DNA of 64,000 nucleotides, from NCBI GenBank assembly GCA_963813335.1, contig CAWEYL010000003.1, positions 224,001 through 288,000 of the forward strand, read 5' to 3'. The position numbers and the translations under genes were made by a program. The notes below the pieces were generated by a model. It was not told the origin of the DNA. It searched no databases and saw only the letters and a list, made by a program, of their open reading frames with translations. Below, one piece after another: positions 47,959 through 58,623 of this stretch (positions within the stretch are counted from its first letter, which is position 1; the number at the start of each line of letters is the position of its first letter). The DNA is from an uncultured Chloroflexia bacterium (GTDB lineage: Bacteria > Chloroflexota > Limnocylindria > Limnocylindrales > CSP1-4).

Positions 47959-48055
47959 TGGCGGGAACGCGTGGGAGTCGAACCCACCGCGCCGCGCCGA
48001 GCGCCGCGCCACTGGTTTTGAAGACCAGGGGACCCACCGGGACCCGACCGCTCCC
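47959..48055 (-). tRNA. selC: tRNA-Sec (UCA)
   Basis: 6-bp D stem with CGGU loop, CUGGU-CUUCAAA-ACCAG anticodon arm, long variable arm, GUGGG-UUCGACU-CCCAC T arm, encoded GCCA end. Confidence 0.96.
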
Positions 48056-48092
48056 GCGCCGATGGTAGCGCGGCCGGACCTATCATCCGGAC

Positions 48093-49161
48093 ATGACGAC
48101 GCTCGAGGCCCCGCCGCCGAACCCGTTGCGCCTGACCGACCTCACCGACTGCGGCGGCTGTGCCGCGAAGCTCGGGGCGGACCTGCTCGCTGACGCGCTC
48201 AGCGGACTTGGCGCCGACGCCGCGGCCCACGCCCCGGACGAGCTGATCGCCGGCCTGACCCCGCCGGACGATGCCGCCGCCTACCGAGTCAGCGACGACC
48301 TCGCGATCATCGGCACGCTCGACTTCTTCCCGCCGCTCGTCGACGACCCGCGGACCTACGGCGAGATCGCAGCCGCGAACGCGCTCTCCGACGTGTTCGC
48401 GATGGGCGGCCGGGTGCTGTTCGCGCTGTCGATCGCGGCGTTCCCCGAGGACCTGCCGCGTGACGTGCTGGCCGAGATCTTCGACGGCGCCTCGGCCAAG
48501 GTCCGCGAGGCCGGCGGGACGCTGGCCGGCGGCCACACGATCCGCGACCCGGAGCCCAAGTACGGCCTCGCCGTGGTCGGCGCCGCCCACCCCGACAAGC
48601 TCCTGCGCAAGGGCGGGGCGCGACCCGGCGACGTCCTGCTCCTCACCAAGCGGCTCGGCACAGGCGTGCTCGTGTCGGGCGCCCGTCAGGGCCGTACCGC
48701 GCCCGACCATCTCGCTGCCGCGATCGACCAGATGCGCACGCTCAACCGCGCCGCGGCCGAGGTGCTCGTCGCACACGGGGTGTCCGCCGCCACCGACGTG
48801 ACCGGCTTCGGCCTCCTCGGCCATGGGCTCGAGATGGCGCGCGCGTCCGGCGCCCGCTTCGTCTTCGATGCCGCCGCCCTCCCGGCGCTCGACGGCGCGC
48901 TCGACCTGGCCGCGGCCGGCGTCGAGACCGGCGGTGCCGCGCACAACCGGCGGTTCGTGCTGCCCGCGCTGACCGATCGCCGACGGCGTCGCGCCCGAGC
49001 TGGTCACGCTCGCCCACGACCCGCAGACCTCCGGCGGGCTGCTGGCGGCCATCGACCCGGTCACGGTCGCCGCCGTCGAAGGGGACCTCGACGCCCGCGG
49101 TGTCCCGCATTGGCGGGTCGGCCGGGTCGACGCGGGCGACCCTGCCGTCGTCCTCGCGTAG
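48093..49161 (+). CDS. selD: Selenide, water dikinase (Cys form; frameshift near 48975)
   Basis: GCAAK, DDAA, DFFPP, NALSDVFAMGG, GGHT and TDVTGFGLLGH; DPQTSGGLL in the shifted frame. Confidence 0.95.
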
Positions 49162-49901: not shown

Positions 49902-51229
49902 ATGATCCCGCGACGGGTGCGCTGGCTCGCCGTCGTCCTCCCGGCCGTCGTGGTCGGGGCCATCGAGCTGCTGAGCGATACCGTCCTCGACCCGTTCCTC
50001 CCGTTCCCATGGGACACGATCCTCGTGATGCTCGTCGTCGGGCTCCTCGCCGCCGGCTTCGCGAGCTGGACGTTCGGTCGGATGGATCGGCTCACGACGT
50101 CGCTCGAGGCCCGGAATCTCGAGGTCGAGAACCGCGCCGCGTCGGCCAATGCGCTGCACGGGGTCTCGCAGGCCATCGCCTCGCTCGCCGACCTCGAGGA
50201 GATCCTCGAGGCGACCGTGAGCAGCGCCCGGACCCTGCTCGGCGCCGACCTGGGGCTGCTCGTCCTGATCGGCACCGACGGCGAGCCGGTCCTGCGCGCG
50301 ACGAGCGGACCGGACGACGCCTTCGATCGGAGTGGGTCGGGCGGCGGCGACGAGGCAAGCCGGTTCCTGCGAACCCCTCACCCGCCCACCATGCTCGGGT
50401 GCGCCGCTGCGGCGAGGCGGGACCACGATCGGCACGCTGGCGGTCGCCGGCCGCTCGATGCCGAGCCACCAGGTCGGCGACGTCGAGACGCTCTCGTCGC
50501 TCGCCAACCATGCGGCGATCGCGATCGAGAACCATCGCCTCGAGGCCGAGCTTCGCCAGCTCGCCGTCCAGCACGAGCGCGAGCGGATCGCCCGTGAGAT
50601 CCACGACGGGCTGGCCCAGCTGCTCGGCTACGTCAACACGAAGTCGCAGGCGGTCGAAGGCCTCCTCGCGGCCGGGCGGCTCGACGAGGCCATGGTCCAG
50701 ATGGCGGAGCTGAGCGCGGCCGCGCGGTCGAACTACGTCGACGTCCGCGAGGCCATCCAGGGCCTGTCCGAGCCGGTCGGCGCCGAGGTCGACCTGGGTG
50801 CAGAGGTCCGCCACTACGCCGACCGATTCGCCGAGGCGTCGAAACTCGTCGTCTCGGTCCATCTCGAACCAGGGCTCGAGACGGCGGGGATCGCGCCCGC
50901 CGTCCGCGACGAGATCTTCGGGACGATCCGGGAGGCCCTGACCAACGTCCGCAAGCACGCCGCGGCGCGGCGCGTCACGGTCGCGATCGGCACCCGGGAT
51001 GGGCGCCTCCTCGTCACGGTCGCCGATGACGGGCGCGGCTTCGACCCGGACCACGTTGACGGCGGACCGGGCGACTGGCCGCACTACGGCATGACGACGA
51101 TGCGCCGCCGGGCGGCCGCCATCGATGCCCGGATCGGCTGGACGAGCGCCCCCGGCGGGGGCACGACCGTGGAACTGGTCGTGCCGCTCGACGGGGCCGG
51201 CGCCGCGGCGCGCCGAGGCCGCCCGATGA
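49902..51229 (+). CDS. Sensor histidine kinase, 2 TM + GAF + HisKA_3 (frameshifts near 50400 and 51208)
   Basis: ERERIAREIHDGLAQ, EALTNVRKHA, DDGRGFD and GGGTTV. Confidence 0.88.
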
Positions 51230-51897
51230 GGATCCTCATCGCCGACGACCACGCCCTCTTCCGCGACGGGGTCGCCTCGCTCGTCCGGGCGTGGGGTCAC
51301 GAGATCGTGGGACTCGCCGGCAGCGAGGACGAGGCGGTGGCGCTGACCGCCGAGGTCGAGCCGGACCTGGTGCTCATGGACGTCCGGATGCCGGGCGGGT
51401 CCGGGCTCGCGGCGACGTCGCGCATCAAGGCCGCCCAGCCCGCGGTCGCGATCGTCATCCTCACCGTGTCCGAAGACGAGGACGACCTCTTCGAGGCGAT
51501 CAAGGCCGGCGCCCAGGGGTACCTCCTCAAGAACCTCGAGGCGGCGGAGCTGCGATCGATGCTCGAAGGGGTGGGTCGCGGCGAGGCCGCGATCAGCCCG
51601 GCGACGGCCATCCGGATCATCGAGGAGTTCGGACGCCGCGAGCGCCTGTCGTCCGGCGCCGAGGCCGTGCGCCGACCGGCCGGGCCGGATCGGCTGACCG
51701 AGCGCGAGCTCGACGTCCTCGCGCTCGTGACCCGCGGGCTGCGCAACAAGGAGATCGCGACCGAGCTCGGGATCAGCGAGAACACCGTCAAGTTCCATCT
51801 CCGCAACATCCTCGAGAAGCTCCACGCCGGCAGCCGCGCGGAACTCGCGGCGCGGGCCGTCAGGGAGGGGCTCGTCCCGGCGCCGGAGGCGGACTAA
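51226..51897 (+). CDS. NarL/LuxR family response regulator
   Basis: ILIADDH, DLVLMD, GYLLK and LTERELDVL...NKEIA...TVKFH. Confidence 0.93.
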   Translation: MRILIADDHALFRDGVASLVRAWGHEIVGLAGSEDEAVALTAEVEPDLVLMDVRMPGGSGLAATSRIKAAQPAVAIVILTVSEDEDDLFEAIKAGAQGYLLKNLEAAELRSMLEGVGRGEAAISPATAIRIIEEFGRRERLSSGAEAVRRPAGPDRLTERELDVLALVTRGLRNKEIATELGISENTVKFHLRNILEKLHAGSRAELAARAVREGLVPAPEAD

Positions 51898-52055
51898 GCG
51901 ACACCGCCCAGGCGCCGTTGCTGCCGGCTCCAGGGGGCCATATGGCAGGGGTGCCCCTACCCGGTCTGACGGGCGCCGTTCCCACCCGCATGCGTGTGGT
52001 CGCCGCCGGCCGCTGACGCCACGCTCCGTGGGACTCGGCCGCAGCGGAGGCAGCC

Positions 52056-54047
52056 ATGGGCTACCGCATCGACATCAACCAGGCGGGCTGCATCAACTGC
52101 GGCGTCTGCATGGACGTCTGTCCGGTGCAGGCGCTCGACATGACACGGCCCGATCATCCGGGCATCGAGGCGGGTCCCGGCGGCGGACCGCTGCGCTGGA
52201 CGATGGAGCATCCGGTCCAGGTCGGCGAATGCATCGGCTGCTCGATCTGCATCCGCGAGTGCCCGGTCGAGGTCATGGACCTCGTCAGCGTCGACGGCCC
52301 GACGCCCCTCGCCGAGCGCCAGGGGCCGATCACCCGTCCCGAGCCCACTACCGGGTGGATCCCGTGGTCGGCGATCACGCGCGAGGCGCTCAAGCCGACG
52401 AGGGTTTCGCCGTTCGAGGGCGGCTATCAGACCCGCAACCGGCCGAAGCCATGGCAGGTCTGGTCGACCATGGTCGAGCCGGACGTGGCCCCGCTGGCCG
52501 CGCCGTGCCAGGAAGCCTGCCCCGCCGGGACCGATGCCGGCCGCTACGTCGGGCTGATCGCCCAGGGGCGCTACGACGACGCGTATGCGGTGGCGGCCGA
52601 GGTCAACCCGTTCCCGTCCGTCTGTGGCTGGATCTGCACCGCCCCGTGCGAGGCGGCCTGCCGGCGCGGGACGCTCGACGAGCCGATCGCGATCCGGACG
52701 CTCAAGCGGTTCGCCGCCGAGCACGGCACCCTGCCGCCGGTCGATCCCCCCAAGGTCCGCCGCGAGGAGCGCGTCGCCATCGTCGGCGGCGGTCCCGCCG
52801 GCATGTCGGCCGCCTACTACCTGATCCGTCTCGGCTACGGCGTGACGGTCTTCGAAGCCATGCCCATCCCCGGCGGCATGATGGCCATCGGGATCCCCGA
52901 ATACCGGTTGCCGCGCGAGACGCTCCAGGCCGAGATCGAGCGCATCGTCGGGCTGGGCGTCGACCTGCGGCTCGACGCGGTCATGGGTCGGGACTTCACG
53001 CTGAGCGGCCTCGAGCAGGAGGGCTTCAAGGCCATCTTCCTGGCCACCGGCGCCCCCAAGAGCCGGCGCCTCGGCGTCCCCGGCGACGGCTCGCGGGGCG
53101 TCGTGCCCGCCACGGTCTTCCTCAAGCAGGTCAACCTCGGCGAGCGGCCGCGGCTGTCCGGTCCGGTCATCGTCGTCGGCGGCGGCAGCACGGCGATGGA
53201 CGCCGCGCGATCCGCCCTGCGCAGCGGCGCCGAGTCCGTGACGGTCATGTACCGGCGCGGGTTCGCCGAGATGCCGGCCCAGGCCGAGGAGGTCGAGGCC
53301 GCCCGCGCGGAGGGCGTCGCCTTCCGCATCGGCGCGGTCGTGACCGAGGTCATCGCTCCCGACGGGACGACGACCGGGGTCCGGTACGCCGAGCAGGCCC
53401 CGACCGGCGAGAGCCAGGGCGGACGCGCGGTCTGGGCAGCGGTCCCGGGCAGCGAGGCCACCATGTCGGCGTCGACGATCCTCGTCGCGGTCGGCGAGGA
53501 GCCCGACCCGTCGATCCTCCCCGAAGGCGCAGGCATCGAGGTCAGCGCCTTCGCCGGGATCGTCGCCGACCCACGGACCCTCTCGACCGGACATGCCGGG
53601 GTCTTCGCCGGCGGCGACGTCGTGTCGGGTCCCAAGACCATCATCGATGCGGTCGCGTCCGGCCGACGGGCCGCCGGCGCCATCCACGAGTACCTCGCCG
53701 GCGCTCGCGACGGCGAGGCCGAGATCATGGCCACGGTCCGCTATCGCACCCCGGTCGAGACGAGCCTCACGCTCGACCTCGCGCCGCGCGCCCGGGCGCG
53801 CCAGCCGCTGCCGATCTACGAGCCCGGCTCCTTCCGGGCCGGCCAGGTCGGCTTCGACGCGACGACCGCGATGGCGGAGGCGTCGCGCTGCTTCCGCTGC
53901 GACGCCGTCTACGGATGCCCGACGGTGGCCGTCACGACGGGCCGCGGCCCGGCCGACGGACCCGGCAGGCAACCCGACCTACCCGCGCCGGTCGTCGGCG
54001 CACCCACCCCCACGTCCACGTTCCCGGCAGCAGGAGGAGATCGATGA
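52056..54047 (+). CDS. Ferredoxin-fused GltD/NfnB-like FAD/NADPH oxidoreductase
   Basis: CINCGVCMDVCP and CIGCSICIRECP (2x[4Fe-4S]), PCQEACP/CGWICTAPCEAAC, GGGPAG, GGGSTAMD, YRRG and C-terminal EASRCFRC. Confidence 0.88.
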   Translation: MGYRIDINQAGCINCGVCMDVCPVQALDMTRPDHPGIEAGPGGGPLRWTMEHPVQVGECIGCSICIRECPVEVMDLVSVDGPTPLAERQGPITRPEPTTGWIPWSAITREALKPTRVSPFEGGYQTRNRPKPWQVWSTMVEPDVAPLAAPCQEACPAGTDAGRYVGLIAQGRYDDAYAVAAEVNPFPSVCGWICTAPCEAACRRGTLDEPIAIRTLKRFAAEHGTLPPVDPPKVRREERVAIVGGGPAGMSAAYYLIRLGYGVTVFEAMPIPGGMMAIGIPEYRLPRETLQAEIERIVGLGVDLRLDAVMGRDFTLSGLEQEGFKAIFLATGAPKSRRLGVPGDGSRGVVPATVFLKQVNLGERPRLSGPVIVVGGGSTAMDAARSALRSGAESVTVMYRRGFAEMPAQAEEVEAARAEGVAFRIGAVVTEVIAPDGTTTGVRYAEQAPTGESQGGRAVWAAVPGSEATMSASTILVAVGEEPDPSILPEGAGIEVSAFAGIVADPRTLSTGHAGVFAGGDVVSGPKTIIDAVASGRRAAGAIHEYLAGARDGEAEIMATVRYRTPVETSLTLDLAPRARARQPLPIYEPGSFRAGQVGFDATTAMAEASRCFRCDAVYGCPTVAVTTGRGPADGPGRQPDLPAPVVGAPTPTSTFPAAGGDR

Positions 54048-54676
54048 CGCCAGAACAGGTCCCGGGATTCTTCGACTTCGGCGAGGGGTTCATCGAAGGG
54101 ACGATCGGCGCGGCACTCGTCGCGCTCTGGATGCTCGCCCTCGCGCTGTTCCTGGCGCGGCCGTACATGGCCGCGAACACGCACAAGTTCACCCTGCGGC
54201 TGGGTGCCGACCTGTGGTGGATGATCTACGTCGCCCTTCGCGACATCCTGCTGCTCCAGGTCTTCCTGGGCAGCTTCATCTTCTTCTACCCGGACGTCGT
54301 GAGCGGCAAGGAGCTCCCGATCACCGGCGGGATCGCCGCGGTCTGCGCCTTCGCGGTGCTGCTCATCAAGCTCATCAAGGGCGACCGCGAGCTCAGCTGG
54401 TACCGGGCACAGGTCCTGCTGCTCGGGCTCGGGGCGACGCTCTACATCGTCCCGTACTTCCTCGGGGTCCAGGTGACCAACTTCGCCGGCGACAACGACG
54501 TCGCGAACACGCTGTCCTCGGCGCTCGTCAGCAGCAACAACGTGGACGTCGCCCTCTACCTCTGCTACCTGTCGGCGTTGCTCGTCGGCATCCTCGCCGC
54601 GATCGCGGTGATCTACAACTTCCGCCAGACCGCAGGCCACGCGCGCCTCGACCAGGGAACGGAGACCGCCCGATGA
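54044..54676 (+). CDS. Uncharacterised polytopic membrane protein A (210 aa)
   Basis: AGGAGGAG RBS, ATGA overlap, about 5-6 TM helices, ARPY...TLRLGADLWW...RD motif. Confidence 0.85.
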   Translation: MTPEQVPGFFDFGEGFIEGTIGAALVALWMLALALFLARPYMAANTHKFTLRLGADLWWMIYVALRDILLLQVFLGSFIFFYPDVVSGKELPITGGIAAVCAFAVLLIKLIKGDRELSWYRAQVLLLGLGATLYIVPYFLGVQVTNFAGDNDVANTLSSALVSSNNVDVALYLCYLSALLVGILAAIAVIYNFRQTAGHARLDQGTETAR

Positions 54677-55332
54677 CCGGCGACGAACTCGCGACCGCGC
54701 TGACGTCCGGTGGGTCCGCCTGGCTGGTCCTCTCGATCGCAGCGATCCTGCCGATCCTGTGGTCGTTCGCGATGGTCCTGCACTTCGCGCGACCGTACGT
54801 GATCCGCTTCCTCCAGACGCTCACGCTCCGCTTCGGCGGCGACGTCTGGTGGCTGTCCTACGTGCTCATCCGCGACGCCCTGCTGACCATCGTGCTGGCG
54901 ATGAGCGTGATCATGCTCATGCCGAACCTGTACATCGGGCTGGGGCTGCCCCTGACCGCCCCGTTCGCCGTCGTCCTCCTGCTGTGGGCGATGGTCATCA
55001 AGCTGATCCGCGACGCGGACGACGACCCGGCGGCGTTCCGGCTCGTGAGCGGCCTGCTCGTGGCCGCCTCGGTCCTCTACATCGTCCCGCAGATCTACGG
55101 CCTGGAAGCGGCCGACCAGGTCGAATGGCTCGACCAGTACGGCCTCGGCTGGATCCCTGGCGCCCTGAGCGCCTCGAGCGGCGACCCGGCGGTCGTGAAC
55201 TCGTGGGCCTGGCCGATCCTCATCATCAGCCTGGTGCTGTTCGGCCTGACGGCCGCCGCCCTCTTCTTCCGGTACCTGCTCGGTCTCGGCCGGGTCGAGA
55301 CCGCGCCAGTCGAGGCGCCGGCCGCCAAGTAG
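54673..55332 (+). CDS. Uncharacterised polytopic membrane protein B (219 aa), paralogue of A
   Basis: ATGA overlap; ARPY...TLRFGGDVWW...RD, IKLI and LYIVP shared with A. Confidence 0.85.
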   Translation: MTGDELATALTSGGSAWLVLSIAAILPILWSFAMVLHFARPYVIRFLQTLTLRFGGDVWWLSYVLIRDALLTIVLAMSVIMLMPNLYIGLGLPLTAPFAVVLLLWAMVIKLIRDADDDPAAFRLVSGLLVAASVLYIVPQIYGLEAADQVEWLDQYGLGWIPGALSASSGDPAVVNSWAWPILIISLVLFGLTAAALFFRYLLGLGRVETAPVEAPAAK

Positions 55333-55344
55333 GCTCGAGGCGCG

Positions 55345-55379
55345 GACCGGGCGGACGGCCGAAGCCATCCGCCCGGTTT
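55345..55379. terminator. Stem-loop terminator after the oxidoreductase operon
   Basis: ACCGGGCGGA...TCCGCCCGGT arms followed by TT. Confidence 0.65.
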
Positions 55380-55400
55380 CGGGCTGGTCGGACCAGAGGG

Positions 55401-56709: not shown

Positions 56710-58623
56710 GTGGCGAGACCCTACGTTCGACTGACCCAGCCCCTCGTGCGCGACGCGAAGGGCGGCGAGCTTCGACCCGCGACGTGGGACGAGGCGCTGG
56801 ATCGCGTGGTCGCCGGGTTCGAGGCCGCGAAGGCGGCCCACGGCCCGACGACCTTCGGGACCTTCAGCTGCTCGAAGGCGACCAACGAGGTCAACTTCGC
56901 GGCCCAGAAGTTCAGCCGGGCGGTCCTGGGCAGCAACAACATCGACAGCTGCAACCGGACCTGACACGCCCCGAGCGTCGCCGGTCTGGCGACCGTGTTC
57001 GGTGCCGGTGGTGGCACGAATTCATACCGTGAGGTCGAGGACGCCGATCTGATCGTCCTCTGGGGCAGCAATGCCCGCGAGACCCATCCGATCTTCTTCC
57101 ACCACGTCCTCAAGGCCGTGCGCAAGGGCGCCCGCCTCTACGCCATCGACCCGCGGCGGACGTCGTCCGCGGAGTGGGCCGATGTCTGGCTGGGGCTCGA
57201 CGTCGGCTCCGACATCGCGCTCGCCAACGCCATCGGTCGCGAGATCATCGATGCCGGGCTCGAGGACGAGCGCTTCATCGGCCGCGCCACCGAGGGCTTC
57301 GAGGCCTATCGGACCAAGGTCGACGCGTACACGCTGGACTACGCCGAGCGCGAGACCGGCGTCCCGGCGGAGACCATCCGCGAGCTCGCGCATGCCTTCG
57401 CCACGGCCGACAAGGCGATGATCTGCTGGACGCTCGGCATCACCGAGCACCACAACGCGGTCGACAACGTCCTGGCCCTGATCTCGCTGGTGCTGCTGAC
57501 CGGCCACGTCGGGCGGTATGGCAGCGGCGTGAACCCGCTGCGCGGCCAGAACAACGTCCAGGGCGGCGGCGACATGGGCGCGCTCCCCGATCGCCTCACC
57601 GGGTTCCAGCACGTGGAGAACGACGCGATCCGCGCCAGCTTCGATGCCGAATGGGGCGTGACGGTCCCGCCGAAGCGCGGCTGGCACCTGTCGGGGATGT
57701 TCGATGCGATGGAGCGCGGCGACCTGACCGCGGTCTACTGCATCGGCGAGAACCCGGTCCAGTCCGAAGCCGACCAGAAGCGCGCGATCGAGCTCCTGTC
57801 CGGGCTCGACTTCCTCGTCGTCCAGGACCTGTTCCTGACCAAGACTGCCGAACTGGCCGACGTGGTCCTGCCGGCCACCGCGGCCTGGGCCGAGAGCGAG
57901 GGCACCGTCACCAACTCCGAGCGGCGCGTCCAGCGGGTCCGCAAGGCGGTCGAGCCGCCGGAAGGTGCACGCGACGACCTCGCGATCGTCTTCGAACTCG
58001 CGAACCGGATGGGCGCGGGCTGGGGCCAGCCGGACCCGGAGGCCGTGTGGGACGAGGTCCGCCGGCTCTCCCCGGTCCACGCCGGCATGAGCTACGCCCG
58101 CCTCGAGTCGGAAGGCGGGCTCCAGTGGCCGTGCTGGGACGAGACCCACCCGGGCGAGCTGTACCTGCACAGCCGGCTGTGGGAGGACCCGATGCCCGGC
58201 GACCGGGTGCCGTTCGTGCCGGTCGACCACGACCCGCCGGTCGACAAGCTCGATGCGGACTTCCCGATCCGGCTCACGACCGGCCGCCGGCTGGACTCGT
58301 ACAACACGGGCGTCCAGACCGCCGGCTACACGTCGCCGCTGCGGCGCGGGGAGTCGCTCGACATGTCGCCCGAGGATCTCGCGCGGTTCGGCCTCGCCGA
58401 GGGCGAGGTGGTCCGGGTGGTCTCGCGGCGCGGCCAGGTCGAGGTCGCGGTGCGCCTCGACGAATTGCTCCGCCCGGGTCTCACGTTCATGACCATGCAC
58501 TTCCAGGACGAGGTCGCGGTCAACCTGCTGACCATCGACGCCACGGACCCGAAGTCCGGCACGGCCGAGTTCAAGGCCACGGCCATCCGCATCGAGAAGC
58601 TCGAGGTGCCGGTCGGGGCCTGA
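56710..58623 (+). CDS. fdhF: Selenocysteine formate dehydrogenase catalytic (Mo/W-bisPGD) subunit; in-frame UGA at 56962-56964
   Basis: NNIDSCNRT-U-HAPSVAGL joins two track ORFs in frame; RGQNNVQG, EGTVTNSERR and LTTGR motifs. Confidence 0.93.
56977..56993 (+). promoter_or_regulatory. Bacterial SECIS element
   Basis: GUCGCC-GGUCU-GGCGAC hairpin 12 nt after the UGA, resembling the fdhF SECIS loop. Confidence 0.85.

Follow-up and report, generated by a model that had tools for sequence, protein, structure and literature searches.

Which reaction is served by a flavoprotein whose gene overlaps that of a membrane protein without a named family, which in turn overlaps the gene of its own paralogue, is the question raised by a locus in the window, i.e., the stretch of 64,000 nucleotides from an uncultured Chloroflexia bacterium that was analysed here. 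The three genes encode a ferredoxin-GltD-like flavoprotein and the membrane proteins MA and MB, and the module is real, conserved and undescribed in the sources searched. The first-pass annotation had proposed an undescribed membrane-associated redox module, and this is supported: 67 of 70 related loci hold all three genes side by side, contig ends cutting the other three, and the membrane family carries no name. By analogy with known enzymes, MA and MB are tentatively read as an FrdC/D-like anchor that would do without heme and serve electron transfer from NADPH or ferredoxin to quinone when oxygen is low, a reading that we hold to be nearly as apt to be right as wrong. The features on which it draws are the following.

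52056..54047, plus strand: ferredoxin-GltD-like FAD/NADP(H) flavoprotein, 663 amino acids
52056..52496, plus strand: 2x[4Fe-4S] ferredoxin module with conserved tail, flavoprotein residues 1-147
54044..54676, plus strand: membrane protein MA, 210 amino acids, five transmembrane segments (TM), predicted N-out/C-in, no named family
54673..55332, plus strand: membrane protein MB, 219 amino acids, five TM, predicted N-out/C-in, paralogue of MA

The open reading frames (ORFs) bear out that flavoprotein, MA and MB are ATGA-coupled at these positions, with an ATGA overlap at both the flavoprotein/MA and the MA/MB junction. Within the flavoprotein, Pfam identified an N-terminal 2x[4Fe-4S] domain, Fer4_20 (E 8e-18) and Pyr_redox_2 (E 1e-33), whereby residues 148-617 form a GltD-like FAD/NADP(H) module whose nearest relatives are NfnA/StnC-type chains; PDB matches of this part, among them 9bov_A (E 1e-98), 9n5u_A and 8oh5_C, range from E 1e-98 to 1e-40. 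FAD and NAD(P) Rossmann folds, Fer4_20 cluster ligands and the YRR motif, as expected of a GltD-like NADPH module, are all present, and the protein falls under every NCBIfam cut-off (best PRK12771, 445 of 516 bits). Among 87 full-length homologues taken from the fetched loci, YRR (residues 399-401) and 14 cysteines are invariant, and both cysteines of the RCxxC motif at residues 611-615 (C612/C615) are kept in 85. According to the accessible part of PMC7596348, YRR marks NADP(H) use in DsrL-2 and NfnB. Domains and homologue conservation hence agree on the protein that had been described at first, namely a 663-residue GltD-type flavoprotein with N-terminal ferredoxin, YRR and C-terminal RCxxC. 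Residues 1-147 comprise a 2x[4Fe-4S] ferredoxin that has an insertion as well as a conserved tail; eight of its cysteines, D20, P53, E68 and T108 are invariant in 48 of 48 rows. This module reaches no NCBIfam cut-off among the families listed (HgcB, 33 of 99 bits), and stand-alone copies of it are encoded at L095 (genome G110) and at the metagenomic loci L110-L147.

MA and MB share 36% identity (49 of 135 residues, E 3e-22), so that their proposed paralogy is borne out; each displays five hydrophobic peaks, and the AlphaFold2 model of MA (pLDDT 92.7) consists of five long helices. Neither protein matched a Pfam family at E<=0.1 or any NCBIfam, no Pfam family recurred among 28 diverse family members, a PDB sequence search with the membrane profile yielded no match at E<=10 and Foldseek against the PDB nothing at E<=0.001. 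VIA-align against 48,161 chains returned generic four-helix bundles only, the best with a Z of 9.9 over residues 4-151, which falls below the tool's guide value of about 13 for helical bundles; this outcome is no proof of a new fold. That the membrane family lacks a named match had been noted before and is what Pfam, NCBIfam, PDB sequence, Foldseek and VIA-align agree upon. The nearest ESM Atlas matches were unnamed Chloroflexota clusters (the AF_1499 row, at 0.78, lies below lead level), the plasmid collection held no match, and no description of the family, its motif TLRLGAD included, was found in the literature covered, which left subscription journals aside; the accessible parts of PMC5898192 and PMC12419801, supplements being outside coverage, do not describe it either.

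A profile search identified 302 representatives of the membrane family at E<=0.001, and residue conservation was derived from 113 MA, 120 MB and 34 single-copy rows (267 distinct of 336 matches, gappy or duplicate rows having been dropped). Across these 267 rows L51, R52, D56, W59 and R66 are invariant and D67 and R39 nearly so, the invariant residues being located in loop 1 and TM2 and clustering at the cytoplasmic side. K109 is conserved in the bacterial pair and present in 22 of 34 single-copy rows, whereas E14 and E18 at the outer end of TM1 are found in all 113 MA rows, E18 also in 32 of 34 single-copy rows, and neither of them in MB. No His, Cys or Met is invariant across the family. The earlier statement that a conserved His is lacking is true for MA of this genome, which carries Phe36, but fails for the family, since position 36/37 at the cytoplasmic end of TM1 is His in 101 of 113 MA and 116 of 120 MB rows (Gln in 32 of 34 single-copy rows).

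Topology and cysteine columns were assessed with 38 MA, 38 MB and 20 single-copy rows. At a level of 50%, no cysteine column occurs in MB and only C101 (34/38) and C174 (21/38) occur in MA. Loops 1 and 3 and the C-terminus carry 2-5 Lys/Arg each and the remaining segments 0.1-0.4, in MA, MB and single-copy forms alike, and this bias gives a parallel N-out/C-in orientation predicted for all three; the signal-peptide-like extensions of some homologues agree with the N-terminus being outside. A tree of 47 rows separates the MA, MB and single-copy groups from one another by supported branches, a pattern consistent with one duplication, the midpoint root serving for drawing only. As an observation in its own right, several MA-side homologues start signal-peptide-like and continue with an extracellular extension, Ig-like in P0136, P0145 and P0150 and His/acid-rich in P0143, P0157, P0160 and P0161. 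Long apparent flavoprotein-membrane fusions among the representatives (P0132, P0228, P0269, P0270, P0124, P0177) look like assemblies with frameshifts and were set aside, and the idea of a rhodopsin-like protein, prompted by the D56-D67 spacing, was given up, considering that there are five helices only and that the Lys resides at the cytoplasmic helix end.

The distribution of the module reveals which of its parts belong together. In a phylum sample, the membrane profile is present in 28 of 301 genomes (9 of 15 of the same family, 0 of 2 of the same genus) and the ferredoxin-module profile (E<=1e-22), which includes some of those genomes and for which at most 12 candidates were scored per genome, marks the identical 28; in the genomes searched, the ferredoxin module was never found apart from the membrane family. 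At 17 loci from 15 distant Chloroflexota genomes the gene order is kept without the kinase/regulator pair that is found upstream in Limnocylindria, and in one of these genomes, G110, the ferredoxin alone replaces the flavoprotein, together with MA and MB and without GltD. A metagenome scan seeded with divergent members, from which the best 80 of 369 matches were kept, revealed a further form at the loci L110-L147, termed archaea-like with reference to one seed protein named 'archaeon' (P0206) and to neighbours archaeal in type. Here, a single membrane gene is followed by a stand-alone ferredoxin in 35 of 38 loci (of the remaining three, two end at a contig edge and one shows no match in 400 nt), and GltD is present in none of the 38. 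Because of the identical 28 genomes, of G110 and of the archaea-like loci devoid of GltD, the fixed unit is, as judged from gene content, membrane protein plus ferredoxin, with GltD and the regulator pair as additions; the first-pass annotation had missed that the ferredoxin module, rather than the GltD part, is the fixed partner of the membrane proteins. In L111-L114, an ORF of unknown function and a gene for a V4R protein follow the membrane-ferredoxin pair, and three of these four loci also have an HTH_10 regulator in divergent orientation; L127, L132, L133, L135 and L143 encode a serine hydrolase after the pair, and L146 a hemerythrin nearby; L152 displays the order MA, stand-alone ferredoxin, MB, with no flavoprotein within its 2.9-kb contig.

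Under which conditions the operon may be expressed was approached from its promoter, for which, next to the genes preceding and the hairpin following the operon, these features are relevant.

49902..51229, plus strand: sensor kinase gene (Pfam; intact relatives)
51226..51897, plus strand: NarL/LuxR-type response regulator gene, not DevR (family matches; best PDB match NarL 1a04)
51934..51949, no strand: DevR/OsdR-type palindromic box, a weak copy reading GGGCC-ATAT-GGCAG (matrix score), which 122 nt separate from the flavoprotein ATG
51956..51998, no strand: CCYAYCC-N4-GGRTRGG box pair (copies at 51956-51973 and 51981-51998, two mismatches each)
55346..55377, no strand: G+C-rich hairpin between MB and the convergent PadR gene, possible terminator

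At the level of the clade, both marks of a DevR/OsdR regulon, i.e., the promoter box and an orthologous regulator, are present, the window's own box being a weak copy. Among 60 Limnocylindria loci with full promoter, the window included, 54 of which carry kinase and regulator ahead of the operon, the palindrome GGGCC-N4-GGCCC occurs within one mismatch in 43 promoters (37 of 54 with regulator, 6 of 6 without), compared to a mean of 7.25 and a maximum of 15 in dinucleotide shuffles, and exactly in 27 of 60 (shuffles, mean 0.5). It matches the OsdR/DevR consensus AGGGCCGATCGGCCCT as given in the accessible part of PMC5069765. Sites scoring at least 9.5 number 181 in 2.54 Mb, about one per 14 kb. 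The genome's DevR orthologue, encoded at G000:C4:44077-44751 (best PDB match DevR 3c3w, E 1e-60), has a strong box upstream, and 30 of 32 further genomes of the class possess it as well; G110 likewise combines a DevR-like match with a box in its operon promoter, and at L015 and L017 the operon adjoins the DevR orthologue, the L015 regulator being 81% identical. The orthologue belongs to a DevS/DevR-type island of this genome (G000:C4:28000-48000, L190), which holds universal stress proteins (USPs), phosphoketolase, acetate kinase, PFOR, a DHOD-like protein, a CoA transferase and a group 3b-like NiFe hydrogenase, and M. smegmatis DosR activates group 3b hydrogenase under hypoxia, as stated in the accessible part of bioRxiv 2023.09.11.557286. 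The island is likely a DevR-type hypoxia regulon in Chloroflexota, and the operon is probably induced at low oxygen. The distant carriers L091-L106 possess repeated TGTGA(T) words upstream instead of the DevR-type box, in L091 as the palindrome TGTGA-TATT-TCACA. Elsewhere in the genome (G000:C1:370300-376900, L192), an NfnB/gltA-type flavoprotein gene, a 697-aa ORF, lies back to back with a double-USP gene and next to a P-type ATPase, and this may be another cluster of the stress or hypoxia type.

That the neighbouring two-component system controls the operon, as assumed at the outset, is likely as well, since presence of the regulator tracks a second promoter box: where the regulator is adjacent, 52 of 54 loci have CCYAYCC-N4-GGRTRGG at about -100, and where it is missing, 1 of 6 does, with the box in a different place (shuffles, mean 13). 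This box is likely the site of the regulator. The regulator's best PDB match is NarL 1a04, DevR not being among the four matches at E<=1e-25. The kinase possesses two TM with a short loop, a degenerate GAF domain, HisKA_3 and HATPase; in six aligned kinases E22 and D26 of TM1 are invariant and the GAF domain is without conserved His or Cys. As the distant loci lack it, this two-component system is a Limnocylindria add-on.

Considering these data, the following mechanism is suggested. Flavoprotein and MA/MB would assemble into a membrane-anchored oxidoreductase, whereby electrons would pass from NADPH to FAD and via four [4Fe-4S] clusters to quinone at the cytoplasmic side of MA/MB; the sequence holds ligands for FAD, NADP(H) and four clusters, and the conserved polar/aromatic patch is cytoplasmic. 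Here, the ferredoxin tail may dock on loop 1 of the membrane proteins and MA/MB may be a heterodimer descended from a homodimer. The acceptor would be menaquinone, bound without obligatory heme as in FrdC/D. Heme independence is suggested because no His, Cys or Met is invariant across the family, with E. coli Frd as precedent, whose anchor is paralogous and without heme and is joined by heme-free Sdh variants that stay active (PMC3290573, in its accessible part). The complex may serve as a reductant valve through which excess NADPH or reduced ferredoxin is unloaded into the quinone pool while lack of oxygen limits respiration. GltD would then be an input that can be swapped, and where it is missing the core would work as ferredoxin:quinone reductase. 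In the same genome (G000:C5:91000-106000, L193), nuoB, nuoH, nuoF and a GltD-like PRK12814-type gene are followed by nuoL and nuoN, possibly a complex I with an NADPH-type or bifurcating input module.

Several points weigh against this anchor reading. Quinone site, substrate and physical binding are all predicted, and the fold search returned generic four-helix bundles only, hence no homology backs the quinone site; a complex prediction of MA, MB, ferredoxin module and two 4Fe-4S clusters scored 0.05 and 0.07 against a mark of 0.32 and counts neither way for binding. No match to the futalosine marker PF02621 was obtained in this genome, which is 81% complete and in which two unassigned UbiA-family genes lie over the cut-off, and as NADPH-to-quinone transfer without terminal acceptor would have no sink, the suggested role fits micro-oxia better than anoxia. 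Regarding regulation, the window's own box scores 10.2 with a matrix derived from the sites in 41 relatives, the lowest of these scoring 10.5, sites of at least 8 in the DevR island amount to 8 observed versus 4.8 expected, a modest enrichment, and the distant families f8, f23 and f27 display neither box in their promoters nor a DevR-like match. Speaking for low-oxygen control, island-type genes lie near the operon at 3 of 6 regulator-free Limnocylindria loci, which are not independent of each other, and at 6 of 16 distant loci (background, 3.8% of this genome's 20-kb windows), but the queries were picked after the neighbours had been seen, and three of ten came from L103 and L105 themselves, own-genome queries alone giving 5 of 16 for the distant loci; such genes are nearby at 0 of 43 loci with own regulator and at 0 of 19 archaea-like loci.

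The alternative that fares best, and which we nonetheless deem unlikely, is a redox-coupled proton or sodium translocator, in which electrons passing through the docked ferredoxin would power the movement of ions along charged residues or be powered by it, for example in a potential-driven transfer from quinol to NADP+ or ferredoxin. Charges indeed span the predicted membrane, from E14/E18, where TM1 has its outer end, via R66/D67, some ten residues deep in TM2, to D56/K109/D114 at the inner face, and both the association with PFOR and fermentation genes and the absence of a Rnf-Nqr match from this genome would suit such a function; yet invariant intramembrane cofactor ligands are missing, E14/E18 are not shared by MB and K109 just by 22 of the 34 single-copy rows, and there is no homology to any ion-pumping subunit. 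Its generalization, of similarly low probability, would be a minimal energy-converting module of bacteria and archaea, consisting of a ferredoxin on a 5-TM dimer with a Glu/Arg/Asp/Lys ion path and no membrane-embedded cofactor. If true, this would be a new class of redox-driven ion translocators, far smaller than Rnf, Ech or complex I, by means of which aerobic soil microbes would keep their membrane potential or regenerate NADPH/ferredoxin under hypoxia.

Somewhat less probable still is a reductase- or desaturase-like enzyme which is fed by its own ferredoxin and whose lipid-soluble substrate would be a membrane lipid or isoprenoid instead of respiratory quinone. In the archaea-like loci, membrane protein and ferredoxin form a free two-gene cassette among unrelated neighbours and the invariant Arg/Asp/Trp/Tyr cluster could be an active site, but neither a recurring lipid-pathway gene among the annotated neighbours nor a metal-ligand motif was identified, and no Lipocone motif, as far as these are given in the accessible part of PMC12419801, is evident. 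An SdhC/D-like cytochrome b, with one His per subunit holding heme b at the MA/MB interface in most Chloroflexota and heme being optional elsewhere, is improbable: the frequent His36/37 at the cytoplasmic end of TM1 and the activity retained by heme-free Sdh variants (PMC3290573, accessible part) would agree with it, whereas the Phe in MA of this genome, the lack of the His in 12 of 113 MA rows and the Gln in the single-copy forms do not. More doubtful than these is a sensing module, whose iron-sulfur wire would report the redox or oxygen state via the membrane pair to the adjacent kinase. The kinase's two TM with very short loop, invariant acidic TM1 residues and degenerate GAF domain without conserved His or Cys are the layout expected when sensing occurs inside the membrane, but the three genes do without kinase in 6 of 60 Limnocylindria loci and in distant Chloroflexota, as does the core alone in the archaea-like loci. 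A metal uptake or metal-reduction module, to which the His/acid-rich or Ig-like N-terminal extensions might point, is equally doubtful, given that most members lack the extension, the TM part holds no invariant metal ligands and no metal-handling gene recurs among the neighbours.

Turning to the boundaries of the locus, its presumed closure by a terminator was confirmed in part: the fold of 55336-55395 amounts to -38.3 kcal/mol and the hairpin at 55346-55377 is strong, but only three T follow it and a consensus terminator scan called no terminator at the 3' end of the operon. In this assembly the kinase ORF carries a frameshift near 50396, and the 3' part of the kinase continues in frame into the regulator. 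Given that independent contigs differ there (one with one base fewer at 50396, another with four gap letters within 51038-51301) and that relatives encode intact kinases of 443-453 amino acids, these indels are likely assembly errors. The RNA runs X18 and X19, apparently one data set deposited twice, consist of assembled contigs with a word share of 0.05, owing to which they reveal neither expression level nor co-transcription. One RNA-run contig fuses 49882 to 55464 and thereby skips all five genes; the junction rests on a 37-letter side and hints, weakly, at a joint gain or loss of the five genes, and five relatives, in which the flanking genes are absent or non-adjacent, do not confirm such an empty site.

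The stated proximity to selenocysteine-dependent formate dehydrogenase (FDH) genes holds for the window, in which a tRNA-Sec (47959-48055) and a frameshifted selD-like gene from 48093 (region 47959-48900) as well as a formate dehydrogenase alpha subunit with in-frame TGA at 56963 (region 56710-58623) were identified, but this neighbourhood is not conserved. FdhA, SelD, metallo-beta-lactamase and PadR had matches in none of the 70 related loci, for which reason a functional link to FDH or selenocysteine was rejected.

Little is known of how Limnocylindria and related Chloroflexota, uncultured bacteria of soil and wetland, live at low oxygen. Through the operon, a membrane protein family without a name becomes apparent, which has a ferredoxin of its own and an NADPH input that can be exchanged and which also occurs in archaea-like sequences. 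If quinone is reduced, the module would be an unrecognised entry point into the respiratory chain and a candidate route for ferredoxin/NADPH reoxidation in aerobes, while the promoter data point to a DevR-type hypoxia regulon outside Actinobacteria. Its two- and three-gene forms are small enough for direct expression and assay.

When compared with known systems, the flavoprotein shares the core of FAD/NADP(H) Rossmann folds, two [4Fe-4S] clusters and YRR with the GltD-like modules of NfnA/StnC-type (9bov_A, 9n5u_A, 8oh5_C), NfnB/NfnL (4ylf_B, 5jca_L), GltD (2vdc_G) and DsrL-2, and its C-terminal RCxxC aligns with 9bov_A and 9n5u_A. Unlike these, it carries an extra N-terminal ferredoxin, has membrane proteins as partners and is encoded in an operon without molybdopterin, GltB, NfnA or DsrAB partner. 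In DsrL, as far as described in the accessible part of PMC7596348, the extra 2x[4Fe-4S] domain is C-terminal on a linker of about 100 residues and the organism possesses dsrAB; here, the extra ferredoxin is N-terminal and a C-terminal dicluster domain is missing, arguing against DsrL membership (dsrAB was not searched). Neither is it a glutamate synthase small subunit, as it stays under all glt cut-offs and has the regulator and MA as neighbours.

With E. coli FrdABCD and SdhCDAB the module shares a working logic of flavin, iron-sulfur wire and two small related membrane subunits. Their anchor subunits possess three TM each, whereas MA and MB have five, the flavoprotein is of NADPH-type and a single-gene form exists in the archaea-like loci. 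Sequence homology to Sdh/Frd anchors received no backing, given that Pfam, NCBIfam and the PDB sequence search (E<=10) returned no match. As for the fold, such anchors are not among the rows listed by Foldseek or VIA-align, which hold generic bundles only.

RnfA/RnfE and NqrD/NqrE resemble MA/MB in being two adjacent paralogous hydrophobic proteins of about 200 residues in a redox operon, an analogy that the first-pass annotation had drawn. RnfA/E and NqrD/E form an inverted 6-TM pair in which cysteines of both subunits hold an intramembrane Fe-S centre, whereas MA/MB are parallel 5-TM proteins without shared conserved cysteine and without RnfB/C/D/G genes. PF02508 (Rnf-Nqr) matched neither MA nor MB, none of the 28 diverse members and nothing in this genome (4 of 14 control genomes match), hence the analogy was abandoned. 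The archaea-like form, in which a membrane protein gene directly precedes that of a dedicated dicluster ferredoxin, recalls HgcA/HgcB, but MA and MB lack a corrinoid domain and the ferredoxin remains at the 33 of 99 bits given above for HgcB.

As for regulation, the operon is not among the DevR/OsdR targets described in the accessible parts of the sources. Its promoter resembles those controlled by DevR/DosR of Mycobacterium and OsdR of Streptomyces, with a box like AGGGCCGATCGGCCCT about 80-145 nt upstream, an orthologous regulator among USP genes and a group 3b hydrogenase in the same setting, and it differs from these regulons by its Chloroflexota host and by the addition of a dedicated second, NarL-type regulator.

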